Positions 1 to 18,552 of a stretch of 18,552 bases of DNA are shown here, in pieces. The stretch is from Promethearchaeota archaeon. Lineage in GTDB: Archaea > Asgardarchaeota > Lokiarchaeia > Sigyniarchaeales > SOKP01. Within the stretch, counting starts at the first letter, position 1. The number at the start of each line of letters is the position of its first letter. Made by a program: the position numbers and the translations under genes. The DNA lies in NCBI GenBank assembly GCA_029838195.1, contig JALGVJ010000056.1:1-18552 (forward strand), written 5' to 3'. The notes below the pieces were generated by a model. That model searched no databases, was not told where the DNA came from, and saw only the letters and a program-made list of their open reading frames with translations.

Positions 1-122
1 TATTTAACCTCTTTTCCGCAGATTATACACTTGTTATCTAAACTTGGTGGATAAGAGAACCTTACAGTATCGTAATCATCTGAATAAGTTTTTCGATTCA
101 TTAAGATGTAATGGATCTTCAT
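1..122 (-). CDS. N-terminal fragment (runs off window edge) of a CxxC zinc-ribbon protein, possibly a transposase
   Basis: Manual translation from ATG at 122: MKIHYILMNRKTYSDDYDTVRFSYPPSLDNKCIICGKEVK, open to the edge. The transposase idea rests only on the N-terminal Zn ribbon and recollection of similar Lokiarchaeia ORFs. Confidence 0.4.
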   Translation of the reverse strand, partial: MKIHYILMNRKTYSDDYDTVRFSYPPSLDNKCIICGKEVK

Positions 123-461
123 GCTTTTTCAACTTTTTGGTGGTTTTGTCGCCAATCTTAGAGCTGGAGCGTGGTAACTGAGATTAATTTGCTACCTCAT
201 ATTTTTTTTAGTTTCTCAATTTACGTTCAAAAAATTATCAAATTACCATACAAATTAGCTGAATTAAAAGTAGATTTCACATCCCGTGGAGGGAGATTTA
301 TTTACAAAATGATAAAATTAAACGAGCAAGAGAACCATTAAAACGATTCAAGAGCTCACATTAACAATTAAAGGCACATTTTCATTAAATTTTCTCATGA
401 GATAGTTCGGGGGCGGGGAGTCATGGTCCATGGGTTAAAAATCAATAATCAAGGACCCCAG

Positions 462-884
462 TTATAGGGGTTCTTTTTGGAGAAAATAGATCCTATTAGA
501 GGCACATTTAGGACATACGGGTTGTTTTTCTGCTTGTTTATTAGCAGAGGCCATTTCGTCTTCCCATTCTGCTCCACATTTCAAGCATCCATATCCCACG
601 AAACCTTTTTTATAGAATATTTCTCCGCCATGCACGCGAATGGGTTTTCCTTCCATTAAAGCTTGGGTGGTTTTTTTATGGGCTCTTTCGAGGATTCGGG
701 AAAAGGTAGGTTGAGAGATCCCCATTTTTTCAGCCGCCTCTTTTTGATTTAGATCGAGATAATGCTTTAATCTCATGGCTTCGAATTCAGCGACGGTAAG
801 AATAACAGAATTGTCGATAATATCATTAAAATAAAAGTTTCTTGGGGTTTCTTTTACCCAGCGCCGGCGAACACGTCTTCCCAT
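462..884 (-). CDS. DUF134/UPF0251 family DNA-binding protein with C-terminal Zn/Fe ribbon
   Basis: MGRRVRRRWV start; LTVAEFEAMRLKHYLDLNQKEAAEKMGISQPTFSRILERAHKK HTH typical of DUF134; C-terminal CLKC...CPKC. ATG at 884 preferred over TTG at 887. Confidence 0.85.
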   Translation of the reverse strand: MGRRVRRRWVKETPRNFYFNDIIDNSVILTVAEFEAMRLKHYLDLNQKEAAEKMGISQPTFSRILERAHKKTTQALMEGKPIRVHGGEIFYKKGFVGYGCLKCGAEWEDEMASANKQAEKQPVCPKCASNRIYFLQKEPL

Positions 885-1051
885 CAAGAATCACATGCAT
901 GAAATTGAATAAATTTTTTTTACTATATATTCAAAAAAAATAAATAAAAAAAGATTAATGATTCTGAGAATACTCTTTGCTTGCCATGAACATGATTTTA
1001 GTTGGTTCTCACCGGTGTATTCAAGGGGGAGCATTGAGAAGCGAATATCAA

Positions 1052-1996
1052 TTAAATTTCTCCAATATCCTTGAGATATTGTTCAAACGCTTGGAGGGTT
1101 TGAAGGGTGTCGAATTTAGGGGCCCATCCGAGTTCTTTTTTTGCTTTCGTGCAATCCACGATTATGGGATATCGACTCATCCGCAGCCAGCCAGGCAGCA
1201 TGGTTCTTTGAAGATGTAGTTTATAAGTCAATGCGAGAAGGAATAATGCAAATTTATAAGGCATTTTATTAAATTTCTTATTGAATTGGCGTGCTATTTC
1301 TCTGTGAATAATGGGATTGTCTGCTCCGAGGTTGAAGGCACCCCGTGCTTTTTTCTTGAAGGCTAAGTAAAAAGCTTGAGCCACGTCATCGACCCAAACG
1401 TATTGAGCTAATTGGTCGGGGAAAAACGATAAGATCTTGTCCTTTTTTAACATTTCTCTGACGAGATTGTTGATTTGAGGGCCTAAAAAAATGTGAGGTC
1501 TCATTCGCACAATAATGAGGTCGGGATGAGCTTGTTCTAATTCATCTAAATATTTTTCCACTAAGTATTTCGTTTCGTGATAATAAAATGGTTTTTTCAT
1601 CAATCGAATGGGATGCTCTTCGGTAATGGGAACTGGATTATCCGGAAAAGCGCCATATGCAGCGACAGAGCTTGCATGAATGATCTGCTTGACTCCAGCA
1701 CTTACCGCACAATCAAACACGTTCTTGCTACCCTCAATATTAATGGAATACATTTCTTTAATCGATTTCAAAGGACTGACAATGAAAGCTAAGTGAAAGA
1801 GCGCATCACTTCCTTTAAAATCCTCTCGTAATTGAGGATCTCTCACATCCCGCTTGATAAATTTCAATTTAGAAAGAACTTGTTTTGGCTCTATAATGTC
1901 CACGCCTATAATAGAATCAATTTCCTCATCCTTTTCCAATAACGGGAGAAGGGTATAAGCAAGGAATCCTGAACATCCAGTTATAGCTACTTTCAA
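1052..1996 (-). CDS. NAD-dependent epimerase/dehydratase (extended SDR)
   Basis: TGCSGFLA Rossmann motif, HLAF, SSVAAYG, catalytic YHETK (YxxxK), VWVDDVA; TTG start. Confidence 0.9.
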   Translation of the reverse strand: MKVAITGCSGFLAYTLLPLLEKDEEIDSIIGVDIIEPKQVLSKLKFIKRDVRDPQLREDFKGSDALFHLAFIVSPLKSIKEMYSINIEGSKNVFDCAVSAGVKQIIHASSVAAYGAFPDNPVPITEEHPIRLMKKPFYYHETKYLVEKYLDELEQAHPDLIIVRMRPHIFLGPQINNLVREMLKKDKILSFFPDQLAQYVWVDDVAQAFYLAFKKKARGAFNLGADNPIIHREIARQFNKKFNKMPYKFALFLLALTYKLHLQRTMLPGWLRMSRYPIIVDCTKAKKELGWAPKFDTLQTLQAFEQYLKDIGEI

Positions 1997-2113
1997 AAAT
2001 AAAACACCTATTTCTTTTTTATATTATTATTTAGGGAAGGGAAATTAGAATAAAATGCTTTCGAAAATTGTTTCTTATCCTATTAAAAAATACATTGACT
2101 ATTCATCATCAAT

Positions 2114-3418
2114 TTAATGAGTGGCACAAGAAACACAAGGATCAAAACATCTAATGATTTTCTGTGATTCTTCTTTAATCATATTGAGATCTCCCGTTTT
2201 TTCATACAATTCTTTAGAAACGTTGGTAATCATGGTATCAATGAGTGGTAGATTAAATTCTGTAGCTATAAATAATTTAACTTCTTTAATTATTTTATGT
2301 TCATCAACCTTATAATGATGAATCAATAACCCTCTTGGTGCTTCAAGCACACCTATTCCTTCATTTTTTTTTAGTTTCTTGCAAGATTCAAGGGGTATAT
2401 TTTCATTTAGTACAGGATTTTGAAGATATAATTGAGAAAATTTTACTTCTTTTAACATTTCCATTAATCGAATAATATTTGCAAAGAGAATGTTATTCTT
2501 CCACGTGTCATTAAAAAAACTTAAATAATCAGGAATACCAATAACTACGGAGTTTTCAATTAAATTATTCCTTGCCATCGGTCCTACCAATACAGGATTT
2601 TCTTTATCAAATAAGATATCAAAACCTCGCGTGTAGGGGGTTTTAGTGAAATAAGTGAAGTAATTTTGAGGATGAAAATCGATTGGATCATTATTGAATT
2701 TTTTAATCCTTAAAATCCCATTATATCTATTGTAAGATCCATAATCATGCAAGCTTATCATACTTGTTGGAGGCAATTTATATGCTTCAGGAGGATGTTT
2801 GCTAGAAAATAATTCTACCGTTTTATCTAAGATCCATTCCAAGTTATTTGATGCAATATCCATGTATTTTTGCGCAAGTTTTATTTTCTTGCTTGAAGCT
2901 TTATAAAGGACTCCTCCTGGTATAGGCGTGATTAAATGAATTGACCGCCCACCGAATATTTTATCTAATTGATTTCCGATATTAACTGCTTCTAAAAATT
3001 TATTTGTATAATCAGGAAATTCTTTAAGTATCTCAAAAGGATTTAAAATTCGGTTTTTTATCCCCAAAATCAGTAATAAGTCGGGAAATGCTTGAAAAAT
3101 ATAATGCATGCCATGTGATTTTAACAATTCCCCCGTTAATAATAATTTCCTAAGAACAACGTGCCTTTCATGAAGTTCCGTACCAAACATATCTTCAATG
3201 GCTTTGCAACTTGCAATGGATTGGGACGCATGACATAACCCACAAATACGCGAAACTATTTTGGGTATTTCTAAAAGTGGTTTTCCCACGAGAAAAGATT
3301 CAAATCCTCTATAGATAGGTAAATCAAAGATAACGCGATTTACTTCATCATCCTTGAGATAAATCTTCACGTTTCCATGACCTTCAATTCTTGTACATGT
3401 TTCAACAACTTTAATCAT
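2114..3418 (-). CDS. mvhA: [NiFe]-hydrogenase large subunit, group 3 (MvhA-like), atypical: CxxCxxxQ and no C-terminal extension
   Basis: TRIEGHG, RGFE, RICGLC, GGRSIH..PGG, VGPMAR, EAPRGLLIHHY, DPCVSCATH-stop. ATG at 3418 has GGTGA upstream and overlaps the small-subunit stop, so it is preferred over 3430. Confidence 0.88.
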   Translation of the reverse strand: MIKVVETCTRIEGHGNVKIYLKDDEVNRVIFDLPIYRGFESFLVGKPLLEIPKIVSRICGLCHASQSIASCKAIEDMFGTELHERHVVLRKLLLTGELLKSHGMHYIFQAFPDLLLILGIKNRILNPFEILKEFPDYTNKFLEAVNIGNQLDKIFGGRSIHLITPIPGGVLYKASSKKIKLAQKYMDIASNNLEWILDKTVELFSSKHPPEAYKLPPTSMISLHDYGSYNRYNGILRIKKFNNDPIDFHPQNYFTYFTKTPYTRGFDILFDKENPVLVGPMARNNLIENSVVIGIPDYLSFFNDTWKNNILFANIIRLMEMLKEVKFSQLYLQNPVLNENIPLESCKKLKKNEGIGVLEAPRGLLIHHYKVDEHKIIKEVKLFIATEFNLPLIDTMITNVSKELYEKTGDLNMIKEESQKIIRCFDPCVSCATH

Positions 3419-4184
3419 TATAAATATCACCTAATAATTTTGGTTTTGAAAATCGATAAAAAAGGCCTCTATTTTTTGTCAAGTTTTCAGAAAGATTTAA
3501 TATACTCAAAAAATTAATGAGATTGGATGTAAATTCTTTTGAAACTGGTCCCATGCACCCCTCGCACGGCACACCACACTTAATGCATTCAAGGTCGCAC
3601 CCTTCACGCGTAATAGGTCCCAAGCATAATAATCCCCGTTTTAAAAAACATGTTGGCTCATTTTCAGTAACATTTACATTTAGATCTTCCAAGAAAGCCT
3701 CAATAATCTGGTATTCGTAATTCTTATCCATTTTATCTCTTAATGGACAAGTTGCACACAAATTTCTATTTCCTAATACAATTTCTTTCCCCTCAATTAA
3801 ATGAATAATACTATTTCCTAATAATTGAGAAGGAGGAGGGCATCCTGGAATTATTCCGTTGATTTCAACATAAGTAGATAAAGGATCTGCTTGTTTTTGA
3901 TTGGATAAACTTAAAATTCCTCCAAATGCGGCACAAGTACCTAATGCGTATAATTTTTTTGCATGATGTCGAATCTTTTTTAAAATAGAAACTTGCGTCT
4001 CCTCCGATATACATCCCTCTATTAAAGCAATATCACAATCTTTAATTTTAGTTTCATCCATAATGAAAGGAGAATAAGTAAGCGAGATTTTTTCTAAGAA
4101 TTGAGAAAAAATATCTAAGCAAATAAGTGCTGAGATGCACCCGCTGCAAGATGTTAGTGATGTGATGAGAACCTTAGGCATCAT
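3411..4184 (-). CDS. mvhG: [NiFe]-hydrogenase small Fe-S subunit (MvhG-like)
   Basis: SCSGC, IEG, GTCAAFGGI, IPGCPP, CATC, CFLKRGLLCLGPITREGC...CGVPCEGCMGP; GAGGAGGAG RBS; overlaps both neighbouring genes. Confidence 0.88.
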   Translation of the reverse strand: MMPKVLITSLTSCSGCISALICLDIFSQFLEKISLTYSPFIMDETKIKDCDIALIEGCISEETQVSILKKIRHHAKKLYALGTCAAFGGILSLSNQKQADPLSTYVEINGIIPGCPPPSQLLGNSIIHLIEGKEIVLGNRNLCATCPLRDKMDKNYEYQIIEAFLEDLNVNVTENEPTCFLKRGLLCLGPITREGCDLECIKCGVPCEGCMGPVSKEFTSNLINFLSILNLSENLTKNRGLFYRFSKPKLLGDIYND

Positions 4185-6723
4185 ATTTTATCTCCTCCTC
4201 CAATTGTTCATAAAAATCATTTATAACTTTAGCAAAGATATTGCCTTCCACCGCGTTCATTTGTCTTAAAAGAATACGATTTTTGTACCTTTCTCCCAAT
4301 ATTTCTTTTAATAATTTAATCTTTTTACCTATTTTTTCCACCCCATCTATATATCTACACGCCGAACGCCGACATCCAACGATTAATACACCATCAAAAC
4401 CAGCCTCTAAAGATCTCAAGATGAAATGGGTATCCACCCTTCCCGTACAAGGTACCTTAATAATAAAAACATTTGGATGATACCATAATTTTTTATATCC
4501 AGCATCATCTGCTGCAGCATATCCGCAGGATTTACAGCAAAAAGCGATGATTTTTGGTCGGGATTTATATTTAGAAAAAATATCTATTGAACTTATTATT
4601 TTAGAGGAGGTATCTATATTCATCTCTAGAGCATTCGTGGGACAAATTGAAACGCATGTTCCACATCCCTTGCATTTGAATTTGTCCAAATTAATCTTGT
4701 CATGATCCATTGTAATCGCATTATATGGACATGAAACCACGCAAAGACCACATAACCCACATTTTTCCTCTTCTATTTCAATTCCACTAAATTCTGCATC
4801 TAAAAAATCTTGAGATAAAAGAGCAATGATTTTAAGGGCTGCCTGATTTGCCGATGCCTCCGTACTATGATAATCTAAAGGGCCGAGCACGCTTCCAATT
4901 CCGTATATTCCCGAGGCGAGAGTTTCTTTACTCATGAATCCATCATCATTTAGAGTAAAATCCATGATTTTTCGAAAAGATTTAAGATCTTTATTCGGAA
5001 CCATATTAGTATTCAATATAATTAAATCACTCTGATACTCTCCCTCATCAGTTTTTATAATTTTTTCATTATAGCGTTCAATAATCTCTAATTGGTTAAC
5101 GTAATGTACTCGTGAATCTATAGGCGTTAAATAAAAATTGCGAGTACTCTCCAGCTTGTTTATTTCATAAAATATATTGATTTTCGCATCAGGGAGCCTC
5201 CCAGAAATGCTGTTCATATATTTTAGCACTAAAATATCATTAAATCGGGATGAGCCTTTCTTTCCCCCCACTCCTTGTATAATAGATATGGATTTAGGAG
5301 GCTTTTTATCCGATAGTTTGATTATCTGACCTTCGGTGGGACCATCTGAAGCCAAAAGACGTTCAAATTCCCATGAAGTAATAATATCATTGAGAGGATC
5401 ATGTTTATAGGTTTCTAAATCTAAGGGAAACTCTGCACCTATAGCAATTACTTTGGCACCAACATTAATTTTAAATTTTTCTTCCTTCTGATCCAAGTTT
5501 ATGGCTTTATTAATACATGCTCGTTCACAGATTCGGCATTTAAGACAATTCTTTATATCTTCTTCATCGATTAGAGGCACATAGGGATAGGAATGAATAA
5601 AGGGAATATAAATAACTTTTCGATTAGATAATCCAAATTCATATTGATCAGGTTTCTCAATTGAACAAATATTCATGCAACTCCCACAACCAGTACATTT
5701 TTTCTTATCCACGTAGCGCGGTTTTTTCAAGAGATAAATGGAGAAATTTCCTACTTCTCCCGTGATATTCGTTACAACGGTATTGGTATAGATTTTAATA
5801 TTTTTTTCTTTTGCCAATTCAGCAATCAATTCTGAGATAAAACAGATAGAGCAATCCCCCATTTCATGAATTCTATTCCAGCGAGCTACTTTGCCTCCTA
5901 ACGTGGGAGATTTCTCAATGAGGTGGACTTCTATCCCTGCCCTGGATAAATCCAGAGCCAAAATGATTCCGGCAATGCCACCTCCAATTATGGCACAGCT
6001 TTTCTGAATTTCTACTCTTTTAATTTTAACACTTTTTTGTAAGACTACTCTTTCTACGGCAGCTTCTATTAAAAGTTTAGCTTTTTCTAATATTTTTAAC
6101 GGATCTCTTTTTTTTACATCGTAATGATGTACCCATGCGCATTGCTCACGGATGTTAGCTATTTCAATATTCACGCTATCAATAACATCCTTGAATATTC
6201 TTTCAAAAAGTACTTGATGGGTTTTGGGGGAGCACGCTACTATGACAATCTTGTTTAGATAGTTATCTTTAACCCATTGTGAAATTTCATCAATATTTTT
6301 CTGTTGACAAAGATTTTTAAATATTTTAACAGAAATGACATGGTTTAATTTACTAACATAATTTTCTAAAAGCTCTACATTAATTGCTTTAGAAATTTCG
6401 GTATTGCAATTACAGATGATAACGCCGACTCGATTTATTTCACTTCCCTTAGAAGGTATATATTCATCAATATCTTCTCCCGAAAGGATCCGTTTATTGA
6501 GGCTCAAGATTTTTAATATTCTTTTACCATCTTCCGTGAGAAAATAGTGCTTGTTGTCTTTATTAATCAAGGAGCCCAATTTTTTTAAATGAAAGTTTAA
6601 CTGGCCCGTAGAGTCAACTCCCAATTTTTCCATTAAATCTGAATAAGAAATATATCCCTCTTTCTCTAAATACTGCAAAATTTTCCGGCGAAAAGGATGG
6701 GATAATACCGAATATATATCCAA
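4174..6723 (-). CDS. hdrA: Winged-HTH (ArsR-like) - HdrA - MvhD triple fusion
   Basis: aa ~1-80: LSHPFRRKILQYL...YSDLMEKLGVDSTGQLNFHLKKL...YFLTEDG (wHTH). HdrA: VGVIICNC, VACSP, ANIREQCAWVH, IIGGGIAG (FAD), DCSIC, four CxxCxxCxxxC ferredoxin motifs. C-terminal MvhD: AFCCKSCGYAAAD, VPCTGRVD, DGVLIVGC...C. TTG start with AAGGAG upstream. Confidence 0.9.
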   Translation of the reverse strand: MDIYSVLSHPFRRKILQYLEKEGYISYSDLMEKLGVDSTGQLNFHLKKLGSLINKDNKHYFLTEDGKRILKILSLNKRILSGEDIDEYIPSKGSEINRVGVIICNCNTEISKAINVELLENYVSKLNHVISVKIFKNLCQQKNIDEISQWVKDNYLNKIVIVACSPKTHQVLFERIFKDVIDSVNIEIANIREQCAWVHHYDVKKRDPLKILEKAKLLIEAAVERVVLQKSVKIKRVEIQKSCAIIGGGIAGIILALDLSRAGIEVHLIEKSPTLGGKVARWNRIHEMGDCSICFISELIAELAKEKNIKIYTNTVVTNITGEVGNFSIYLLKKPRYVDKKKCTGCGSCMNICSIEKPDQYEFGLSNRKVIYIPFIHSYPYVPLIDEEDIKNCLKCRICERACINKAINLDQKEEKFKINVGAKVIAIGAEFPLDLETYKHDPLNDIITSWEFERLLASDGPTEGQIIKLSDKKPPKSISIIQGVGGKKGSSRFNDILVLKYMNSISGRLPDAKINIFYEINKLESTRNFYLTPIDSRVHYVNQLEIIERYNEKIIKTDEGEYQSDLIILNTNMVPNKDLKSFRKIMDFTLNDDGFMSKETLASGIYGIGSVLGPLDYHSTEASANQAALKIIALLSQDFLDAEFSGIEIEEEKCGLCGLCVVSCPYNAITMDHDKINLDKFKCKGCGTCVSICPTNALEMNIDTSSKIISSIDIFSKYKSRPKIIAFCCKSCGYAAADDAGYKKLWYHPNVFIIKVPCTGRVDTHFILRSLEAGFDGVLIVGCRRSACRYIDGVEKIGKKIKLLKEILGERYKNRILLRQMNAVEGNIFAKVINDFYEQLEEEIKYDA

Positions 6724-6808
6724 TTTTAATTCTCAACTCCTTGAGAACCTTTATGATTAGTGAATATTAAAACTGCATTCACAAAAAAAACAATTTTATT
6801 TTTCTTCA

Positions 6809-6826
6809 TGATAAACATTATTATCA
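6809..6826. promoter_or_regulatory. Palindromic operator TGATAA-N6-TTATCA upstream of the wHTH-hdrA-mvhD gene
   Basis: TGATAA acatta TTATCA, a perfect 6-bp inverted repeat ~85 nt upstream of the TTG at 6723; the same motif occurs at 6942 and 12031. Confidence 0.7.
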
Positions 6827-6941
6827 AAAAATAAAAATCTTTTTATTGAAAATGGTCACCTAGATTATTGATTTCAAAAAACTGATAGTAGAAATCGAAA
6901 TAGCATCATTTAAGACAAGTCATCTGATTTTTATTGGAGAT

Positions 6942-6983
6942 TGACAATTCTTCTTGTCATAATAATCATAATTTTTCTTATCA
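6942..6983. promoter_or_regulatory. Tandem operators upstream of the divergent operon
   Basis: TGACAA ttcttc TTGTCA (6942-6959, perfect) and TCATAA tttttc TTATCA (6966-6983, one mismatch), offset by 24 bp. Confidence 0.7.
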
Positions 6984-7068
6984 AATTTTTTTTATTTTAC
7001 TTATCCCGTTTTCCTCTTGGTAGATATTTTTAATTAAAAAGGAACTGAACTTCGAGGTGGTAAAATAA

Positions 7069-7686
7069 ATGGAAGTATTAGAATTAAAGCCTTTAAAAAA
7101 TAAAAAGATAACAGCTTATTTCTTCTCAAAACAAAGTTCAGCAGATCTTAATGAAATCAATTCAGATGAGCTAAAAAAATTTCTTAAAGAAAAAAATGTG
7201 GACTTTGCAACCATAGATTTCGATGTAGATATGAAAGATTTTAACAATAATGAATTTGCGAAGACTCTTATCAAGTGTAATATCCCATATTATCAAGTAG
7301 ATATCCCTGAATTCGTAATGGGTTATTTATATGAGGAAATCATTGAAAAGGAAGAGTTAGTTGAGGAATTGATCCAAGAATATCAATCCATGGAAGATAA
7401 GGAGTCTTATAAGGGATTGAGTCTAAAAAATTGGATCGACATGCTTAATCTTGAAATACAAGAAAAGGAAAATTTTCTTAGTTTACGGTTGAGACCCCAA
7501 TGGATCGTGAAAAAAATGTTAGATCTTGCGAAAAAAATAGATAAACAGGTAGTTACATTTATTCATTTTGTCAAAAAGGATATATGCGAAGATATTTGTT
7601 CTCAAGTAATTGAATGCTTAAGGGAGATGGGAGTTAAGGTAATAGATTATAATAAAATTCATACAATTAAAAATATAATTTTATAA
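7069..7686 (+). CDS. Hypothetical protein, degenerate paralog of 7714..8457 (possible TraB/Tiki-like fold with coiled-coil insert)
   Basis: 205 aa ORF with GAGGTGG RBS; shares EVLELKPLK, DFA, NIPx...DI and RxxW...LxLAK with the next gene. Confidence 0.7.
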   Translation: MEVLELKPLKNKKITAYFFSKQSSADLNEINSDELKKFLKEKNVDFATIDFDVDMKDFNNNEFAKTLIKCNIPYYQVDIPEFVMGYLYEEIIEKEELVEELIQEYQSMEDKESYKGLSLKNWIDMLNLEIQEKENFLSLRLRPQWIVKKMLDLAKKIDKQVVTFIHFVKKDICEDICSQVIECLREMGVKVIDYNKIHTIKNIIL

Positions 7687-7713
7687 TAAAATTAAAAAGG
7701 AGGTATGATAAAA

Positions 7714-8457
7714 ATGCCAGAAGTTTTAGAATTAAAGCCTTTAAAAGAGAAGGTTTTGAAATTAATCCTCATAGAAAGTGAATTTCCCATTGATTGGTGG
7801 TTTGAGGTACCTGAAGAATTAAAGGAGGATTTGGTATGGAATTTGCATTTGATTTCAAGAGAGTATCTAGATTTAATCGAAAATCTTATAGAAAAATATA
7901 AGCCTGATTTTGCCTTAGAAGAACGTCCAAATTATCTTAATCGTAATGAAAAGGATCCCTTGAAAGTTTTATTTCAAGTTAAAAATATTCCATTTAAACA
8001 TGCAGATATTGATGAAAATGCAGAAGACTATCTTTCTGCTGCTTTAGAGGAACATAGGCAAATATTAGAGAAATTAGAGGAGAGAATAGCAGAAATAATC
8101 AAAAAAAATGGAAAAGCTCCCACAGAAGATGAGGAATTTCAGCGATTGCTCATATGGAAAGAATATTTAAAAAAGGATTATGAGGATCAAGAAGATGAAG
8201 TAAGATATAAGGTTCGAGAAGCTTGGATGATGATGAATATTTTAAATTTGGCTAAAGATGTGGGAAAAAAAGTGGAAAGCAAAAAATTAAAGGGATTTTT
8301 CATCTGTGATAAGAGACATTTTGATGGATTAGATGCCTTGGCAGAATCTCTGGGAGTTGAAACGGAAAAAATTAAGATCAAAAAGAGCATAAAAACGGAA
8401 GAGATTGAAAAAGTCATGGAAAAAGAGATTGAAGTAAAAATCCGAGATAAAGAATAA
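7714..8457 (+). CDS. Hypothetical protein, possible TraB/Tiki (EreA/ChaN-like) fold
   Basis: GGAGGT abuts ATG 7705, so ATG 7714 (MPEVLELKPLK) is the better start. PDFALEE, ADID, REAWM and ICDKRHFDGL resemble the TraB-type PDxVxxE / RxxxM / GxxHxxG pattern. Fold call is tentative. Confidence 0.65.
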   Translation: MPEVLELKPLKEKVLKLILIESEFPIDWWFEVPEELKEDLVWNLHLISREYLDLIENLIEKYKPDFALEERPNYLNRNEKDPLKVLFQVKNIPFKHADIDENAEDYLSAALEEHRQILEKLEERIAEIIKKNGKAPTEDEEFQRLLIWKEYLKKDYEDQEDEVRYKVREAWMMMNILNLAKDVGKKVESKKLKGFFICDKRHFDGLDALAESLGVETEKIKIKKSIKTEEIEKVMEKEIEVKIRDKE

Positions 8458-8522
8458 ATTAGAGTTTTTTCTTAATTTTCAATTTTATCATGAAATTTTA
8501 AATTATTGAGGTGAATGTAAAA

Positions 8523-9512
8523 ATGGCAAAATATAATGAAGTAGAACAAATTTTAGGAAGAAAATCAATTTTAGAGCTAACACCAATCGTGATTAAAAAA
8601 AAGGATACCTCCGATAAGATCTGTTATTTTCTCGATACTGATGATGTAGCCTCCCCATTTGACATAAACATGGCATACGATGCGGGGTTTGATGTAGTAG
8701 TGCCCATTAGTAAAATGAAGGCTGAATTTGTTCCTAAAATAGTACAAGATGCAATTTTTTCTCGAAAACCAGGAGCGCCTACCACATTTTTCATAGGAGG
8801 ATCTGATGTTAAAGAAGGTGAAAAAATTGCGAAAAATGTCGTTAAATCGTTAGTTCCACCATTCGAATGCCCGGTCATTATTGATCCACGAGGATCTCAC
8901 ACGACCGCCTCAGCAGTAGTAGCCATGACCTTAGATATCGCAAAAAGAAAGCATGGAATAACTGATGTGAAAAATAAAAAAGTGGTAATTTTTGGAGCGG
9001 GGCCTGTAGGAAGAATTGCTGCAATTTTGGCAGCAAAAATTCATTTAAATACTTTTCTCGTTGAAACTTGGGAAAAAACCAGTGAGGAATTCATTATCAA
9101 TTTAGCTAAAGAATTAACGGAAGAAGCGGGAGATGGTTCCTCGCAAATTAAAGGCGTATTCGCACCTAGTTTAGAGGAAAGATTTCAAATCTCTCAAGAT
9201 GCTGATTTCATATGGTCGCTAGCAGCAGCAGGCGTCGAAATTTTACCTGAGGAATTAATGGCCAAATTAAAAGGTAAAAAGCTGGTTGTAGATATTAATT
9301 TGGTTCCCCCATATGGCATTGGAGGCATAAAACCAAAGTATAAAAATGAGGAAATTTATCCCGGAATTTTCGCAATAGGAGCTCTAAGCTTAGGAAGGCT
9401 AAAAGCAAACTCCGAAGCCGCCATCTTGAAAGAAGCGGCTAACACTAAAGGTCTAAAAATATTTGATTATAATGTCGCTTTTGAAATTGCGAAAGAATTA
9501 TTGAAAAAATAA
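8523..9512 (+). CDS. NAD(P)-dependent methylene-tetrahydromethanopterin/tetrahydrofolate dehydrogenase (MtdA/MtdB/MtdC family)
   Basis: SPFDINMAYDAGFD, VQDAIFSR, FIGGSD, PPFE..DPRGSHTTASA, GAGPVG, DINLVPPYGIGG are characteristic of the family. ATG 8523 lies downstream of GAGGTG. Confidence 0.85.
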   Translation: MAKYNEVEQILGRKSILELTPIVIKKKDTSDKICYFLDTDDVASPFDINMAYDAGFDVVVPISKMKAEFVPKIVQDAIFSRKPGAPTTFFIGGSDVKEGEKIAKNVVKSLVPPFECPVIIDPRGSHTTASAVVAMTLDIAKRKHGITDVKNKKVVIFGAGPVGRIAAILAAKIHLNTFLVETWEKTSEEFIINLAKELTEEAGDGSSQIKGVFAPSLEERFQISQDADFIWSLAAAGVEILPEELMAKLKGKKLVVDINLVPPYGIGGIKPKYKNEEIYPGIFAIGALSLGRLKANSEAAILKEAANTKGLKIFDYNVAFEIAKELLKK

Positions 9513-9525
9513 AATTTTAAATCAG

Positions 9526-9540
9526 TTTTTTTTATTTTTT
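9526..9540 (+). terminator. Oligo-T archaeal-type terminator after the mtd-like gene
   Basis: TTTTTTTTATTTTTT shortly after stop 9512. Similar T-tracts follow 12411, 15941 and 18001. Confidence 0.4.
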
Positions 9541-9588
9541 AGTTTTACATTTAATTTTATGTTTATTTTAAAAAAAAGAGGAGGAAAT

Positions 9589-11880
9589 TTGGTGATTTTC
9601 AAAAATAATAAGAACTTTTCCTTGCCTCAAGGAATTAAGCTCAGAATTAAAGATTCATTTAAGGATGACGCAGGTAAAGGAATTGTGAGATTAGATCCTG
9701 AAATAATGGTAAAATTAAATTTAAAATCAGGTGATATTATTGAAATCAAACATTCTAAAAACAATACCAAAACAGCAGCTTTACTCTTAACGGGTAGAAA
9801 TGAAGATCGAGGCAAGCATATATTACGAATGGATCCTTCTGAGCGGAATAATATTATTGCATCTATCGATGATTATGTTGAAATTCGAAAAATAGAAGCA
9901 CCTCTTGCAGAAAAAGTCATCCTAACTGGTTTAGAAAGCACGTATTTAATAAGAGATTCTCAATATTTAGTAAGAAAATTAGAGAAGAGAGCAATTACTA
10001 TGGGAGATCGTCTGAGCTTTTATGTCATGGGGCGTAGAGTTGATTTAATGGTAATAGATTATCAGCCAAAGGCGGAAGCGGTAAAAATTACATTGGATAC
10101 TGAAATCTCTTTTACAGAAAAAAAAGAAATCGAATTAAAGCGAAAATCGATTTCTCGATTTAAATATGAAGCAATAAGTGACATTGAACAAGAAATGCAT
10201 AAGATGGCAAAAAGGATAACTTATGAGGATATCGGAGGTTTAGGGGAGCAAATTGAAAAGATTAGAGAAATGATTGAACTACCCTTGCTTCATCCTGAAT
10301 TATTTGAAAAAATTGGTATTAATCCCCCTAAAGGAGTATTACTCTATGGTCCCCCAGGAACAGGAAAGACTTTATTGGCAAGAGCTGTAGCATATGAAAC
10401 AGATGCACATTTTATTTCAATTAGTGGCCCTGAAATAATGAGTAAGTTTTTTGGCCAGAGTGAAGAAAATTTAAGAAAAATATTTGAAGAAGCAAAAGAA
10501 AAAGCCCCTTCCATTATATTTTTTGATGAGATTGATTCGATTGCAAGTAAACAAGATAATGGTCGAAGTCAAGTCGAAGCAAGAGTTGTAGCTCAATTAT
10601 TATCCTTAATGGATGGATTAGAGAAGCGAGGAAAAGTAATCATTATTGGAGCAACTAATAAGCTTAATCAAATAGATATTGCATTAAGGCGTCCCGGGCG
10701 GTTTGATCGGGAAATTGAAATTGGAGTTCCTGATGCTGCAGGTCGTTATGAAATTCTCTTAATCCATACAAGAGGCATGCCCTTAAATCCTGATGTTAAT
10801 CTTAAATTGTTAGCTGAAAAAACTCATGGATTTGTAGGAGCTGATATAAAAGCATTGGCTAAAGAGGCCGCCATGCTAGCCATTAAGGATATATTTCCTC
10901 ATATTGATTTAGAAAAACCCATTCCTAAAGAAATATTAAATCGTATTGAAATCAATATGAATCATTTTTTAATCGCCCTAGCTTCAATAGAGCCCTCTGC
11001 CTTGAGAGAAGTTCTCATTACCAAACCCAATGAGACTTGGGAGGATATTGGAGGGTTGCAGGAAGCAAAGCAACAACTAAGAGAAATTATCGAATGGCCA
11101 TTAAAATTCCCAGAATTTTTTGCTTACATGAAAGCAGAACCACCTAATGGAATTCTTTTATATGGGCCTCCTGGCACGGGAAAAACATTGCTTGCAAAGG
11201 CAATAGCAAATGAAACGGAGGCAAATTTTATTTCAGTAAAAGGTCCTGAATTCTTATCCAAGTGGGTTGGAGAAAGTGCTAAGGCAGTAAGGGAGATCTT
11301 TCGAAAAGCCCGCACAGTCCGTCCTTGTATTATTTTCTTTGATGAAATCGACGCCATAGCCACTAAAAGAAGTATAGAAAGTAGCACCAAGGTTGTGGAA
11401 CAGATGGTTGCTCAATTATTAACGGAGATGGATGGCCTGGAGGAACTTAAAGATGTAATATTGATTGCTGCGACTAATAGACCCGATATGTTAGATCCGG
11501 CGCTATTAAGAGCAGGGCGTTTTGGAAGACATATTGAAATCCCCTTACCTCATAAAGAATCTAGAAAAGAAATCTTTAAAATTCACTTAGAAGGAAAACC
11601 TTTAGATCCAGAAATTAATTTAGAAGAATTAGCAGAAAAAAGTGAAGGATATTCAGGGGCGGACATTAAAAGTATCTGTGAAGAGGCTACCATATTTGCC
11701 ATTAGAAGAGGGATATTTGATGATAAGATAGATAAAAAAGATCCCAGTTCCTTTAAGCAAGTGAAAATAAATAATTCTGATTTTACCAAAGCTTTTGAAA
11801 AGATAAAGGTTTCAATTTTAAGAGCTAAAAAAATTTATGAAGATCAATTGAAGGGAGCATCCGAACAACTCTATGGTTAA
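9589..11880 (+). CDS. cdc48: CDC48/p97/VAT-family AAA+ ATPase with C-terminal HbYX motif
   Basis: N domain ([10 protein letters not shown]), two AAA modules with [23 protein letters not shown] / RAGRFGR; ends LYG. GAGGAGG at ~9578-9584 suggests TTG 9589 or GTG 9592 rather than ATG 9559. Confidence 0.93.
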
Positions 11881-12030
11881 ATATTTTCTAATTTTTATCT
11901 CCTTATTTTTTCCTTATAATTTATTGGGTCGTTATATCAATTAAATTCATTATTATAAGGTTCAAATCATTCTAAAGGAATTCATTGTGCATTTTATTTC
12001 ATAACACAATATTTGTTAAACTAAAAGATT

Positions 12031-12072
12031 TGACAAATTGAATTATCAGAATGATCAAAATTCTTCTTATCA
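12031..12072. promoter_or_regulatory. Tandem operators upstream of the 86-aa gene
   Basis: TGACAA attgaa TTATCA (12031-12048) and TCAAAA ttcttc TTATCA (12055-12072), with the same 24-bp offset as 6942/6966. Confidence 0.65.
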
Positions 12073-12150
12073 AATTTATTTTATTTTATCAATTTCATCT
12101 TTTACTTAGAATTAAAAAAATTATAAAAATTAAAAAAAGGTGGTAAAAAA

Positions 12151-12411
12151 ATGCAAGCTTTTGCTCATGTCCCCGAGGAAAGGGAAAAAATAACTTCATA
12201 TAAAAGTATGATAGAAACAAAAAATAAAGAATCTAAGAAACAATTCTTAAAAGAATTGGCAAAAGGATATTTAGAAGCTGAAAAAATGAAAGTAATGGAA
12301 ACATTTAGAATGTTTGAAAAAGAATATGAAAGTCTTGAGAATAAAGACTCCTTTAAAGCTCAATACCTTGAATCTTTTATTTTTGAGCTTAAAACAGAGC
12401 TCCATCTCTAA
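12151..12411 (+). CDS. Small helical protein homologous to the coiled-coil segment of 7069..7686
   Basis: AGGTGG RBS and T-tract after the stop; 17/50 ungapped identities (hand count) with EFVMGYL...LNLEI of 7069..7686. Confidence 0.75.
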   Translation: MQAFAHVPEEREKITSYKSMIETKNKESKKQFLKELAKGYLEAEKMKVMETFRMFEKEYESLENKDSFKAQYLESFIFELKTELHL

Positions 12412-12871
12412 ATAACTTTTTTTTTCCCTCATATTTTTATTAAAAATCCATAATTGCTATTTTTTCACGTGAGATTATTACTATTCCCCAAAGAAACCAC
12501 TTGACTTATTAAATTGGCATTCTTAATTATTTAATTTAAGATGGATAAAACTTACTAAAATTTAATAAAGAAGAAATAAACCCTCCTTTTATGGATGGCA
12601 CTACTTTCTATTCTTGATTTTATTTTTTAATTATAATTCCAAAATTGTTATTTTTCCTATTTTCTTATTATTTTTCTAATAAATAAAATAACACCATCAT
12701 CGAAATACCATTCTATTAAAATATAAAAATTAGAATGTCAACGTAATGAAAAATGAGCAACAAAAAGACTTAGAAAATTACAGCGTTAATTCCAAACAAA
12801 AATAAATATGAATAACATTAAAGTGTAAAAATAACTGAATAATAATTAAAAAAAATAAAAAATCAAATTGA

Positions 12872-14200
12872 TTAAGGTTTTAAATCGTTTTCTGATTTCA
12901 TAACCGACTCGGATTCTTTTCTGGAAAGTTTAAATTCATAATCAGTCGGTGATAATAAGAAAAATCCTACCAGCCCCAGATTAGAAATGAGTGCCATGAA
13001 GAGAAATACCATGAGATAAGAAGCCGTCAGTGATAAAATTACCCCTGTTAATGCAAGTCCGATTACCCCTCCAAGGTTCGCAAAAGCGTTCGTGAGACTA
13101 TAATAAGTGGAATCCATTGCAGGATGCTGCTTGGAAATCTCCGTCACCACTGCTGCATAACTACTATGGCGCCAGCCGATAGCTAAGCCAATTAGTGAGG
13201 CAAAAAACAATAAAACACCCCAAATGGTCGGAATTAACATCAATAAAAGAGATATGGTAGTAATCGCATAAGCTAAATACACGCTTAGCCTCCTACTTTT
13301 CTTGTCAGCCACTTGCCCTCCCACAATTGCTCCAATAACTATTCCAACGGATATAATCATGGTCATGTTTCCTTGGTATAAATATACAATGGGATCTGTT
13401 GTAGTCAAAGAAAGGCTGGTTCCAATAGAGGAAATCAACCCAATTTGAATGAGCAAGAATAAGGTAACAAATAAAATCACCACGGAATCCACTATGGCCG
13501 CAAATAATGAAAAAATGTACGTCTTAAAATCGCGTTTATTATTAAACATCTCTTTTAAATGAATCATTAACATTACTTCGGGATATTGTTTCGGCTCTTT
13601 AATGAAAATGGTTAATAAAGAGCTCGCAATCATTAAAATCCCAATGATAATGAAAAGAGATGGCACATTCAACCCACCATAGACGACCAAAATGGCCAAA
13701 ACTGGACCTCCAGCAATTGCTCCTACGCTTCTTAGCCCCCAATTAAAACCTGACGCCCGACCTAGTTTCTCTTTCGGGCAAATATCTAAAAGCAAACCGT
13801 CGATAATAGTGTCTGAGAATGCAACTCCGGTGAAAATTAGAATGCCCATGACGGTAAAAACGGTAATAGCGTTCTCTTTATTGAATAAATTTGGGGTTCC
13901 AAGTAATGCCCACATGACACCGGCCATGGACATCATACCAATGATCCAAGGGCGCCGTCGTCCAATTTTTTTCGATCCTACTTTATCTCCGATAATTCCA
14001 AAAAACACTTTAAAAATCCACGGGAGACCAATTATAGATCCTAAAAAAGCCAACGCAGCAGCATCCAGCACGCCGATATATTGAATGAGATAAATGGGAA
14101 TGATAACAGCAAATAAACTCTGATCAATGCCCTGAAATAAGTAATTGGAAGAGAAAATTGCGATATAATAATTTTTAAACTCTACTTGCTCTTTTTCCAA
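12872..14200 (-). CDS. MFS transporter (AmpG/BT1-like motifs), paralog 1
   Basis: ~12 hydrophobic segments; PWIFKVFFGIIGDK...GRRRPW, SDTIIDG, GGQVADKKSRR; TTG start. Confidence 0.88.
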   Translation of the reverse strand: MEKEQVEFKNYYIAIFSSNYLFQGIDQSLFAVIIPIYLIQYIGVLDAAALAFLGSIIGLPWIFKVFFGIIGDKVGSKKIGRRRPWIIGMMSMAGVMWALLGTPNLFNKENAITVFTVMGILIFTGVAFSDTIIDGLLLDICPKEKLGRASGFNWGLRSVGAIAGGPVLAILVVYGGLNVPSLFIIIGILMIASSLLTIFIKEPKQYPEVMLMIHLKEMFNNKRDFKTYIFSLFAAIVDSVVILFVTLFLLIQIGLISSIGTSLSLTTTDPIVYLYQGNMTMIISVGIVIGAIVGGQVADKKSRRLSVYLAYAITTISLLLMLIPTIWGVLLFFASLIGLAIGWRHSSYAAVVTEISKQHPAMDSTYYSLTNAFANLGGVIGLALTGVILSLTASYLMVFLFMALISNLGLVGFFLLSPTDYEFKLSRKESESVMKSENDLKP

Positions 14201-14600
14201 GACATTCCCTCGTTAATATATATTATTTACGTTCAAGTATTTTTTTTAAATGAAAAAGATTTTTCAATGATTTATTAAACATTCTTTTTTAAATATTTAA
14301 AAATTTCTTTTTTAATAAATTCCATGAACGAAGAGACCATGATATAATGGGGCATGGAGGCGTATTCCACGGTATAATGGTACCTTAAAAATTTCATTGA
14401 TTTATCTTTTATCTTTCATTCTTCCCTTAGCGATATTTTTCTTCCTTTTTCTTACTTTTGGTTCATTACTTCTCTTTTCATGAGATTCAAAAAAAAAGAT
14501 CTCGCACTAAAAACTTTAAATAGTTTAGGACGTGAATTAAAATAATAACAATATTATTACACGTTATAAAATCAAATCATTTAAAACTCAGGAAAAAATC

Positions 14601-15941
14601 ATGAATAAAACAAATGTTGAATATAAATCGCTTTATACGGGTGTTTTCTCCTTGAATTACTTCGTGCAAGGAATAAACCAGTCCATTTTCACGACCGTTG
14701 TCCCCATTTATATCTTGAACTTACTGGGTGTAGTAGATACCGTTGCCATTGCTTCCATGGGCTCGATCATCATGATTCCCTTTGTCCTCAAGCTTATATT
14801 TGGACTGATCTCCGATAAAGTAGAAATCGGGAAGCTTGGACGAAGAAAGCCCTGGATCATTGGTGCTACGAATTTTGCGGGAATCATGTGGTTAATTTTA
14901 CCTCCAATTCTATTTTCAAATCCTTGGGCCGCATATAGCATCTTTACACTTGTTGGATTTTTTGTCATGTTTGGTACGGCCTTCTCAGATACATCAATGG
15001 ATGGTTTTATCATGGATATTTGCCCTAAAAACTTGTTGGGACGCGTGACAGGAGCCGTATGGGGTTTTAGGAGCATGGGAATCATTACAGGGGGATTGGT
15101 CATCTTATTACTAATTAATATCATTCCCGTTGAGACGATTTTCATTTTTTTAGGAATCATTACTATCATATTTGGATGGTTAATCTTATTGATTAAACAT
15201 GGAGAAACCATGAAAGACAGGGAAATTCTTTCGAATCTGAAAATAATATTTAAGCGAAAAGAAAATTGGAAGGTTTTTTTCTTTTCGATGTTCATGGCAG
15301 TTGTGGATGGAGTCATTTTCCTTTTTATTGCATTATATATTTTAATTCGAGCCGGGCTTGTTAATCCCGTGGGCGCCACCATAGAGATCTTGGATGAAGA
15401 TTTGAATCTATATTATCCGCAAGCTTTCATCACTTTAATCGTTAGTTTAGGAGTGTTAGCGGGTGCTTTCATTGGAGGGCGGGTTGCTGATAAAGTATCG
15501 AGAAGAGTAGCGACGTTTTCATCTTTCATTCTTACCACAAGCGCTTTATTATTGCTATTAATCCCCGTGCCTTCGAATCTAGTTTTCATTTTATTAATCT
15601 TCACGTTTATCGCGGGCTCATCAAGCGGCTGGAGCAATTCTGCATTTTCTTCGATTTCGGGAGAATATGCACAGCAATATCCGGAGGCTCCGGGAACTTA
15701 TTTATCACTATGTACTTCATTCATCAATTTTGGCACCTTGATGGGGCTATCTTTTACAGCACAGATTTTTAGTACGGCTTCAACGCTTTTCATAGATGTA
15801 TTGGCAATATATGCGACAGTTTTTATTTTCATGGCCTTTCTTTCCAACATTGCTATTATACCTTTCTTGACCTTAGATAAACATCAATACGAATACAAGC
15901 TAAGGGAGGAAAGTTCCATAAAGGAAATGTTAAAGCCTTAA
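14601..15941 (+). CDS. MFS transporter, paralog 2
   Basis: PFVLKLIFGLISDK...GRRKPW, SDTSMDG, GGRVADKVSRR. Confidence 0.88.
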   Translation: MNKTNVEYKSLYTGVFSLNYFVQGINQSIFTTVVPIYILNLLGVVDTVAIASMGSIIMIPFVLKLIFGLISDKVEIGKLGRRKPWIIGATNFAGIMWLILPPILFSNPWAAYSIFTLVGFFVMFGTAFSDTSMDGFIMDICPKNLLGRVTGAVWGFRSMGIITGGLVILLLINIIPVETIFIFLGIITIIFGWLILLIKHGETMKDREILSNLKIIFKRKENWKVFFFSMFMAVVDGVIFLFIALYILIRAGLVNPVGATIEILDEDLNLYYPQAFITLIVSLGVLAGAFIGGRVADKVSRRVATFSSFILTTSALLLLLIPVPSNLVFILLIFTFIAGSSSGWSNSAFSSISGEYAQQYPEAPGTYLSLCTSFINFGTLMGLSFTAQIFSTASTLFIDVLAIYATVFIFMAFLSNIAIIPFLTLDKHQYEYKLREESSIKEMLKP

Positions 15942-16314
15942 ATAAAATACTGCTCTTTCTTTTTTTTTTACTCTTATTGTTGAAAAGAATTTTAACATGT
16001 AAACCCTGTTCCTCCTTATTTTGAAAATTAAACTCATGGGTCTCTTGGATTTCTTAAAGAGCTTGTTTAACTTATTAGACATTTTTTAATAAGAGTTCTT
16101 GGTTAAAATATCCTTCTTTTTGGAAAAATACTGGTTTCTTTTTTCCTCATGGTGGCTCTCCATAAAAATCTCTTTTTCCCTTGGCAGAAGGACCGTTTTC
16201 CTTGAACGTATAGTCCTAAAGATTACATCCTATCATATACAAATTTTACTCTAATTTATACATGTATATCAGCTTACCTTCTTCTTATTTGGAAGCTAAT
16301 GGGCTTCACCTGAT

Positions 16315-16662
16315 ATGGGATATAAAATTTTTATTCTGAAAGATGAAAATGGTGCGAGAGTTGATATGGAAATCTTTTTTTCTCTTCCGCTTGAATTAGT
16401 TCTTGCTCCCTTCGTAGATGAATTGCATGAGTTACATGAATGGAAACCGGACATGACCAGAACGATGCTATTTTTACCCATTTCAATGATGGAGGCCATC
16501 CTATATGCCAGATTTCATGAGAACATGTCCAATCGGGCATTTAGAATTATTTTTATGATAATTCATGACATTTTTAAAAAATCAGAGGAAAAAAAAAACT
16601 TAAATTCAATCCATATAAATGTAGATCATCGAGTCAAAATTGAATATTATTTGGGAACGTGA
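16315..16662 (+). CDS. Hypothetical protein or transposase N-terminal remnant
   Basis: 115 aa ORF whose stop lies 1 nt before the MFS3 ATG. FLPISMMEAILYARFHENMSNRAF loosely resembles IS5/IS1182-type N-terminal helices. Confidence 0.35.
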   Translation: MGYKIFILKDENGARVDMEIFFSLPLELVLAPFVDELHELHEWKPDMTRTMLFLPISMMEAILYARFHENMSNRAFRIIFMIIHDIFKKSEEKKNLNSIHINVDHRVKIEYYLGT

Positions 16663-16663
16663 A

Positions 16664-18001: not shown

Positions 18002-18082
18002 GAGACACGAGTTTTTAAGTATCTTTTATCTTTAAATTTTTTTTTTTTATTTTATCGAGCATGTTTCATAAATATTAGTTTC

Positions 18083-18552
18083 TTATTGTAGTTTTTCCAA
18101 CAAGGCAGGCGAGACTATCACGAGACATCCGAGACGATTCGATATTCTCATGCGAATATTTTCAAGAGTGCGCATCCCACACTGAGTTTGATACAAGATA
18201 TTCATCAATTTATTGCTCGACTCGTTAACTACCTTAATGGAGGGAGAAAAGGTACGCCGAGGGAAAAGCTCATGAAAATGTTGGAACCGAAACACGTTCT
18301 CCTCATTGTTTAGTAAAGTCAATACGGCACTTTTTAACCAAGGATGCATGCCGGGTTTTAATAAGCCCAAAAGGAATCGGAGGGACGCTCGTTTCTCGGG
18401 AGGAAGCCGAAATTGATAATAAAATTTCACCACCGTGTGCCTATAAGGGCGGAGCCAGGGAAATTCCTTGAGGCATTCTCGAAGCTGACGATGATGCCAA
18501 GAACTCATGTTCACGGGATTCATTAAAAGCAAATATTTAGCCCGGTTAAAAT
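18083..18552 (-). mobile_element. C-terminal part of a probable ISL3-like transposase (open at window edge)
   Basis: The frame stays open past 18532 (FNRAKYLLLMNP...). NESSNKLMNILYQTQCGMRTLENIRMRI resembles the ISL3 ExxNxxIKxxxRxxxGxRxxxxxxxRI motif. Region is visibly more GC-rich than its flank. Confidence 0.55.

Follow-up and report, generated by a model that had tools for sequence, protein, structure and literature searches.

According to PMC5665086, the histidine of the L1 motif is conserved in every [NiFe] hydrogenase other than the bacterial H2 sensors. The two described systems closest to the locus analysed here stand on either side of that rule: the MvhAGD-HdrABC complex of methanogens (group 3c; PDB 5ODC, 9SW2), whose large subunit has the histidine, and the regulatory hydrogenase (RH) HoxBC of Cupriavidus necator H16 (HupUV type, group 2b), whose large subunit has a glutamine instead. 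Here, we analysed an 18,552-nt stretch of DNA (the window: contig JALGVJ010000056.1, positions 1 to 18,552, of the Promethearchaeota archaeon assembly GCA_029838195.1) that encodes a [NiFe] hydrogenase of Mvh type whose large subunit carries Gln at the L1 His position, as residue 66. Published metabolic models of Asgard archaea count such clusters as Mvh-Hdr-type energy-conserving hydrogenases (e.g. 10.1101/2025.02.26.640444), and our literature search found no published description of the Gln variant, which is not proof of its absence. The comparisons below indicate that the window enzyme belongs to a branch of the group 3c (Mvh-type) [NiFe] hydrogenases that is specific to Asgard archaea and whose crown is defined by Gln66. 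As to its role, we favour, at a probability of roughly 45%, a hydrogenase module that is tuned but working and forms part of a bifunctional enzyme-regulator.

The L1 glutamine and the clade that carries it

The large subunit and its relevant motifs are placed in the window as follows.

2114-3418, minus strand: large subunit of a [NiFe] hydrogenase, 434 aa, group 3c-like (MvhA-like), tail-less, translated from the ATG at 3418
3218-3250, minus strand: L1 motif, R57 to S67 (RICGLCHASQS), with the Ni ligands Cys59 and Cys62; clade signature CGLC[H/Y]xSQ
3221-3223, minus strand: CAA codon of Gln66, placed by alignments at the otherwise conserved L1 His position (equivalent to HoxC Gln67)
3236-3238, minus strand: Leu61, the x of CGxC and presumed first gas-gate position; aligns with HoxC Ile62
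3092-3094, minus strand: Gln109, presumed second gas-gate position (second Cys + 47; HxxH + 4); aligns with HoxC Phe110 and with Leu of MvhA
2114-2143, minus strand: L2 motif DPCVSCATH followed at once by TAA, without a C-terminal maturation extension

Translation confirms the reading RICGLCHASQS with Gln66 encoded by CAA (3223-3221, minus strand) from which an earlier note on this DNA had set out. HMMER places this residue at the L1 His of MvhA (5odc_F, RICGICQVAHH) and likewise at that of two more group 3 structures, 9sw2_F and 7t2r_D, and ungapped BLASTP alignments match it with the His of HoxG from the membrane-bound hydrogenase (RICGVCTGCH) and with Gln67 of C. necator H16 HoxC (RVCGICSVSQS), the large subunit encoded beside the "regulatory [NiFe] hydrogenase small subunit" on the megaplasmid of that strain. 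It is thus the same L1 residue as in the group 2b sensors, as the note had proposed. The remainder of the protein and its surroundings bear out the note's assignment to group 3 (Mvh), with an E value of 1e-51 to MvhA vs 5e-20 to HoxC and with Mvh/Hdr-type neighbours. The closest PDB sequence is MvhA (5odc_F, E 1.3e-51), which is also the top fold match (template modelling score 0.87) of an AlphaFold2 model with a predicted local distance difference test score of 86.8. The protein has both CxxC pairs (C59/C62 and C428/C431) and matches Pfam PF00374 and the NCBIfam families VhuA and ShyA, both NCBIfam matches falling below the equivalog cut-offs; VhuA, the top family, scores 169 bits vs a cut-off of 800.

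How widespread is the glutamine? The 120 best homologues are of about 430-440 aa and come from Asgard metagenome-assembled genomes (MAGs) where the source is named; 119 of them were scored, all of which end at the L2 His and 118 of which have Gln. The residue is likewise present in 123 of the 127 clade members, 50%-identity representatives included, and in 45 of the 47 large subunits read from retrieved orthologous loci. In an exhaustive search, it was found in none of the 119 other full-length group 3 representatives (50% identity), which carry His (110) or Tyr (7) at this position, so that Gln is not a common residue of ordinary group 3 enzymes. Both Gln codons are in use (CAA 37, CAG 3) though His lies one third-position change away, which argues that Gln66 is under purifying selection and selectively maintained, and the whole pattern that it is neither a matter of chance nor a sequencing quirk. 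Two further observations concern the distribution of this residue. A subgroup of group 3 large subunits reading RICG[IL]CP[VI][AS]YQ (P0151, P0173, P0211, P0231, P0244, P0265, P0272) has Tyr at the L1 His position, followed by Gln, and adds one more natural departure from the conserved His. Also, a contig recorded as bacterial ("Candidatus Deferrimicrobium sp."; L016, DATKTP010000041.1) encodes an Asgard-type HdrA-MvhD / small / Gln-type large operon, at 43% identity and with the start of the fusion gene cut by the contig end; it is probably mis-binned.

The origin of the residue was followed in two trees, one of 101 rows (LG+G4; three rows, L015, L020 and L021, are mis-extracted HdrA open reading frames (ORFs) and were ignored) and one of 42 rows, outgroup-rooted and built without the L1 columns (LG+C20 with posterior mean site frequencies; a quick search, with the Shimodaira-Hasegawa-like approximate likelihood ratio test, SH-aLRT, only). 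The large subunit nests among the group 3 representatives in both trees, which agree on the Asgard clade (SH-aLRT support 96-100%) and on an inner Gln clade (99%). Two His lineages are basal within the Asgard clade, the P0127 cluster (sources: Jordarchaeum/Freyarchaeota) and the P0132 cluster, and two more, P0125 and P0057/P0281, are nested within the Gln clade, each consistent over independent contigs. The best tree has one gain of Gln and two reversions to His, and the starred branches force at least two changes. The trees show that Gln arose once within the Asgard clade, from a His-bearing ancestor. Since Gln is conserved in the orthologues and absent from other group 3 enzymes, its acquisition is, as judged from these distributions, independent of the group 2b sensors, and the convergence suggested by the earlier note finds support both in the trees and in the 0/119 count.

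The change at L1 has company. Where the clade reads CGLC[H/Y]xSQ, the signature elsewhere is CG[I/V]C[P/S]x[S/A]H: Leu61 is present in 121 of the 123 Gln-bearing clade members vs Ile or Val in 92 of the 119 outgroup representatives, and position 63 is His or Tyr in 120 of the same 123. At position 109, 117 of the 127 clade members have Gln, against Leu in 91, Met in 16 and Phe in 7 of the outgroup sequences. In the two basal His lineages this residue is still Phe or Leu; the two revertants retain Gln109, and both have also switched Leu61 to Ile. Mapped in this way, the residues show that Leu61, His/Tyr63 and the polar Gln109 arose on the same branch as Gln66, and the active-site surroundings are, on this comparison, remodelled as a set. 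Leu61 and Gln109 differ from the canonical Ile-or-Val/Leu pair, and Gln109 is polar, not bulky hydrophobic as its counterpart in HoxC. One of the two bases for reading them as gate residues is the pair V74/L122 of D. fructosovorans, which we take to be gas-gate positions. C-terminal tails have also changed: they count 13-34 residues in MvhA-like representatives, which have the L1 His, 5-11 residues in basal clade members and none in the crown. Against this background of change, E12, C59, C62, D113, R362, D426, C428, C431 and H434 are invariant in the clade alignment. Because the metal-binding Cys, Glu12 (within TRIEGH), Arg362 (within EAPRG) and the three Fe-S cluster motifs of the small subunit are intact, the site is predicted to be one that should still activate H2.

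The operon, its candidate operator and the hydrogenase complement

The remaining genes of the operon and the palindromes around it are the following.

3411-4184, minus strand: 257-aa small subunit, MvhG-like, whose Cys patterns fit three Fe-S clusters (5odc_E, E 3.8e-37)
4174-6723, minus strand: fusion of a winged helix-turn-helix (wHTH) domain (DUF7347, aa 2-71), an HdrA2-like core (aa 97-715) and MvhD (aa 722-843)
6809-6826, no strand assigned: palindrome TGATAA-N6-TTATCA, candidate operator, about 90 bp upstream of the fusion gene
6942-6983, no strand assigned: two more copies of the palindrome in the divergent promoter region, one exact (6942-6959) and one with a single mismatch (6966-6983)
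12031-12048, no strand assigned: fourth copy of the palindrome, upstream of an 86-aa ORF at 12151-12411

The genes of the small and large subunit overlap by 8 nt at 3411-3418 (ATGATTAA) and those of the fusion and the small subunit by 11 nt at 4174-4184; these overlaps indicate that the three-gene operon is translationally coupled. The order DUF7347 wHTH-HdrA-MvhD / small / large recurs in all 17 other complete orthologous loci, in which the large subunit is 36-74% identical to that of the window. The top NCBIfam match of the fusion is HdrA2 (593.6 bits, cut-off 1100, residues 98-843). Its HdrA core aligns with 5odc_A but is without the four Cys of the [4Fe-4S] cluster of the thioredoxin-reductase domain (C..CSxxCC motif): the region at 5215-5290 (minus strand; HdrA residues ~478-500) reads IQGVGG..KKGSSRFNDIL, and the DKTFPT stretch has become NRIHEM. 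From its place in the sequence, we infer that the lost cluster is the one that passes the high-potential electron towards HdrBC (HA4, PMC12350162). Four ferredoxin-type cluster motifs are retained in the fusion protein. Group 3c enzymes act together with HdrBC in an electron-bifurcating complex that reduces heterodisulfide; neither hdrB nor hdrC is found in the operon or the window. Many CCG-domain genes lie elsewhere in the genome, so that a partner might act in trans. None of the window ORFs scanned has a histidine kinase or response-regulator domain.

The pattern TGAYAA-N6-TTRTCA occurs in the window in three exact copies and one single-mismatch copy vs 0.5 expected, and three of the nine exact copies in the whole 4.5-Mb genome lie there. 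A large palindrome regulon finds no support, as nine exact genomic sites compare with 1-9 for control patterns and the clustering is local only. In orthologous loci two sites recur, at ~90-125 and 215-260 bp ahead of the operon's first gene, though some of these loci do not have both. The palindrome precedes the operon in 12 other loci, with at least one exact copy in nine and one-mismatch copies in three (L013, L015, L017). The His-type Freyarchaeia/Jordarchaeia lineage keeps an exact copy (at a Jordarchaeia locus, among the nine). With up to one mismatch allowed, the pattern is absent upstream of the operon in the Gln-type L020 and in the other three His lineages (loci L127-L130; P0057, P0125, P0132), though the wHTH fusion is kept, and the operator may have diverged in these lineages. 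Because the palindrome is clustered at the operon and recurs upstream in orthologous loci, the wHTH is very likely a real, local autoregulator. In two loci (L005 and L006), a gene for an FrhB-like subunit lies between the operator and the fusion gene. The DUF7347 wHTH is also found at the N-terminus of an ORF for an ATP-cone and NrdD-like anaerobic ribonucleotide reductase of the same genome (G000:C22, L149:1-1761, minus strand), so that this domain decorates ordinary enzymes too.

The window genome is a MAG of 4.5 Mb in 94 contigs (96.6% complete, 7.9% contamination). Hidden Markov model (HMM) and protein searches found no second hydrogenase in it: no other PF00374 match, no group 4 and no [FeFe] enzyme. 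An enzyme of the window type is likewise the sole hydrogenase detected in a genus mate and in at least six further genomes at least 90% complete (at least seven in all), and family-wide a group 4 hydrogenase is present in 9 of 89 genomes and an [FeFe] one in 2 of 89. For maturation, the window genome has hypD. A gene for a HycI-family maturation endopeptidase of 189 aa is also present (G000:C54, L003:1342-1911, minus strand), though the sole large subunit found has no cleavable tail; this gene could be an orphan, could serve some other purpose or could stand on a contaminant contig, given the contamination of 7.9%. Some relatives (L151-L156; G149, G173, G184, G206, G261) have a second, His-type large subunit (RICGICPIPHH) whose ORF ends in ..LPDPWIK without an L2 motif, probably a split VhuA/VhuU-type enzyme as judged by these features; this type is absent from the window genome and its genus mate. 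We also considered whether P. syntrophicum MK-D1, a cultured producer of H2, has the Gln-type enzyme as its only hydrogenase and rejected this, as three single-contig genomes of a neighbouring family (presumably the MK-D1/Lokiarchaeum family) carry a His-type split enzyme, RICGICPVPHH.

The partners in the complex have diverged at different rates. Averaged over pairs, the large subunit is 50% identical, the small subunit 62%, MvhD 66%, HdrA 68% and the wHTH 72%, and large-subunit identity falls below HdrA identity in 78 of 78 pairs. In five relatives with both enzymes, compared over the same 10 genome pairs, identity is 78-92% for the VhuA-like large subunit of His type and 49-66% for the large subunit of Gln type. 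By these identities, neither its partners nor the co-resident canonical hydrogenase come near the pace at which the Gln-type large subunit evolves.

Elsewhere in the window, three paralogous major facilitator superfamily transporter genes stand in a row downstream of a CDC48-like ATPase gene, at 12872-14200 (minus strand), 14601-15941 (plus strand) and 16640-18001 (plus strand).

Function of the complex

A model of how such an enzyme-regulator might work can be drawn from these features. In standard enzymes, the L1 His gives a hydrogen bond to the bridging Cys sulfur; here, the Gln amide would take the place of the imidazole and a Leu/Gln gate that of the usual Ile-or-Val/Leu gate, and the two together would adjust the active site's redox behaviour and make gas exchange slower. 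MvhG and the fused MvhD would hard-wire the hydrogenase to an HdrA-like flavoprotein with its own winged helix, facing a conserved operator on its own promoter. A modest flow of electrons would link H2 with the HdrA flavin and the clusters of ferredoxin type, and transcription would respond to the redox state that results, by a logic that may be compared with that of PutA. That the module is a working enzyme is plausible from its status as the sole hydrogenase here and in at least seven other genomes, from the FrhB-like gene in two loci and from the presence of the wHTH on an NrdD-like reductase; a modest flux is plausible from the large subunit being the part that diverges fastest. A low-flux or signalling role is indirectly supported by the conserved operator, the polar Gln109 and the fast evolution of the large subunit, not by Gln66 itself. 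This residue is best described as part of a co-adapted active site, and it appears neither sufficient nor required for the role of the complex, because His-bearing orthologues share the architecture.

Several points weigh against the model. For every clade member, activity, bias and DNA binding are read from sequence. The gate reading of Leu61 and Gln109 comes from the ungapped alignment with HoxC Ile62/Phe110 together with the V74/L122 work on D. fructosovorans. An HdrA without the Cys of one cluster, in an operon without hdrBC, leaves room for a pure sensor. The status of only hydrogenase is drawn from MAGs, with 7.9% contamination and 94 contigs in the present case, and from HMM or protein searches. 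Finally, adaptation, and not relaxed constraint, could explain why the large subunit evolves fast.

Is Gln66 then the mark of a sensor? Orthologues in the same context give a divided answer to the earlier note: most of them do have Gln, and all four His lineages (Freyarchaeia/Jordarchaeia, the second basal one and the two revertants) share the wHTH-HdrA-MvhD / small / large architecture, which speaks against reading the residue as a sensor mark. The note's central proposal, a low-activity sensory site marked by Gln, goes beyond what the data establish. These His orthologues contradict it in part, and the status of sole hydrogenase and the report that the RH Gln "seems not to be involved in H2 sensing" (PMC5665086) weigh against it as well. 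The same findings tell against a dedicated H2 sensor, a low-turnover, HoxBC-like receptor that would serve only to pass electrons into the MvhD-HdrA chain and thereby change how the fused wHTH binds DNA. Such a sensor would often have no other hydrogenase to regulate (in the window genome, the genus mate and at least six more good genomes), and the palindrome regulon is tiny and local; the four ferredoxin-type motifs kept as electron exits, the FrhB-like subunit of some loci and the lack of a histidine kinase or response regulator in the window also fit it poorly. It would, on the other side, explain why the L1 residue and the tail-less C-terminus are as in HoxC, why the gas gate is altered, why the wHTH is highly conserved (72% mean identity) along with the operator, and why the Cys of one HdrA cluster are lost and hdrBC is missing from the operon. 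Bacterial sensors evolve faster than their uptake enzymes, and the large subunit here evolves far faster than the co-resident canonical hydrogenase; many relatives, moreover, have a second, His-type hydrogenase able to do the metabolic work. On balance we consider a dedicated sensor rather unlikely, and look with the same doubt on its most explicit form, a self-contained H2-sensing transcription factor in which a slow, gas-gated NiFe site would act through MvhG, MvhD and the HdrA flavin on a winged helix that binds or releases TGAYAA-N6-TTRTCA.

At the opposite end, the complex could be an ordinary metabolic group 3 hydrogenase in which the change from His to Gln, near-neutral or mildly tuning, marks the lineage, and the wHTH does no more than autoregulate expression. 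Gln and His could serve as interchangeable hydrogen-bond donors, the two reversions and the basal His lineages having left the operon architecture unchanged; the change is a single third-position transversion; His is not absolute, given the Tyr of another group 3 subgroup (seven representatives); and Asgard NiFe-FrhG-HdrA clusters are annotated as energy-conserving hydrogenases (10.1101/2025.02.26.640444). However, 97% retention of Gln over deep divergence, one mutation from His, argues for selection, and Gln came with three other changes near the active site, of which Leu61 turned to Ile in both revertants, suggesting coupling. The large subunit is also unusually fast-evolving for a high-flux enzyme, and this second alternative seems to us less probable than the sensor. 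A degenerate or inactive remnant, or an artefact of sequencing or assembly, might be suspected from the missing tail, the lost conserved His and the fast evolution; it is very improbable in view of metal ligands and catalytic residues that are invariant over the clade, frames that are intact in dozens of independent assemblies and a hypD gene that is kept where the Gln-type enzyme is the sole hydrogenase. The tuned, working module of an enzyme-regulator is the reading that we retain.

Significance and comparison with known systems

The Gln-type enzymes represent a second, independent and widespread exception to the conserved L1 His, inside a group 3 Asgard enzyme and beyond the bacterial H2 sensors (PMC5665086), and one that comes with a polar gas-gate residue, the loss of the tail and a complex bearing its own DNA-binding domain and operator. 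What is new here is the rooted polarity with its reversions, the co-change of the gate at Gln109 and the rate control within the same genomes; the Gln alone is one supporting detail of a larger system. Because Gln/His and Leu/Gln variants occur naturally among orthologues, revertants included, what this second-sphere residue does can be tested directly. In genome-based models of H2 syntrophy, the Gln-type enzyme passes for an ordinary Mvh-Hdr bifurcating hydrogenase, and if it were truly low-flux or sensory, the H2 metabolism deduced for several genomes would need revision. Were it an H2-sensing transcription factor, it would represent a second evolutionary route to an H2 sensor, through the same L1 Gln as in HoxC/HupV, in the archaeal lineage closest to eukaryotes.

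How does the window complex compare with systems already described? PutA, of proline utilisation, is a flavoenzyme with its own DNA-binding domain that autoregulates its operon by flavin redox state; the likeness is a functional analogy only, since PutA is unrelated in sequence and fold (ribbon-helix-helix, not wHTH) and has no hydrogenase. HdrA2 of the Methanosarcina acetivorans HdrA2B2C2 complex, which is coupled to F420H2, has the same HdrA-MvhD fusion order. Unlike it, the window partner has the DUF7347 wHTH in addition, is one cluster short and is coupled to a hydrogenase, and no hdrB2C2 genes adjoin it.

The likeness to HoxBC of C. necator lies in the large subunit. Both large subunits have Gln at the same L1 position in an S-Q-S context, both end at the L2 His without an extension, and both depart from standard enzymes at the gas-gate positions (PMC5665086). 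However, HoxC belongs to a different group and is only 22% identical to the window protein (E 5e-20), and its gate, Ile62/Phe110 in a narrow hydrophobic gas channel, is bulky and hydrophobic, whereas that of the window pairs Leu61 with a polar Gln109. Group 2b enzymes are further characterised by low turnover, by being trapped in Ni-SI/Ni-C and by insensitivity to O2. HoxBC signals through the histidine kinase HoxJ and the response regulator HoxA, in contrast with a wHTH fused to the flavoprotein partner, and the RH always serves other hydrogenases, whereas the window-type enzyme is often the sole one.

The likeness to the methanogen MvhAGD-HdrABC complex extends over several subunits: MvhA is nearest in sequence and in fold, the small subunit is MvhG-like with three clusters, and MvhD and HdrA are encoded alongside, here as one fusion. 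The window complex differs from it in having Gln for the L1 His, a Leu61/Gln109 gate for Ile/Leu and no C-terminal extension, and in an HdrA from which the Cys of one [4Fe-4S] cluster are gone, in an operon without hdrBC, and which has gained an N-terminal wHTH and a palindrome upstream of its gene.

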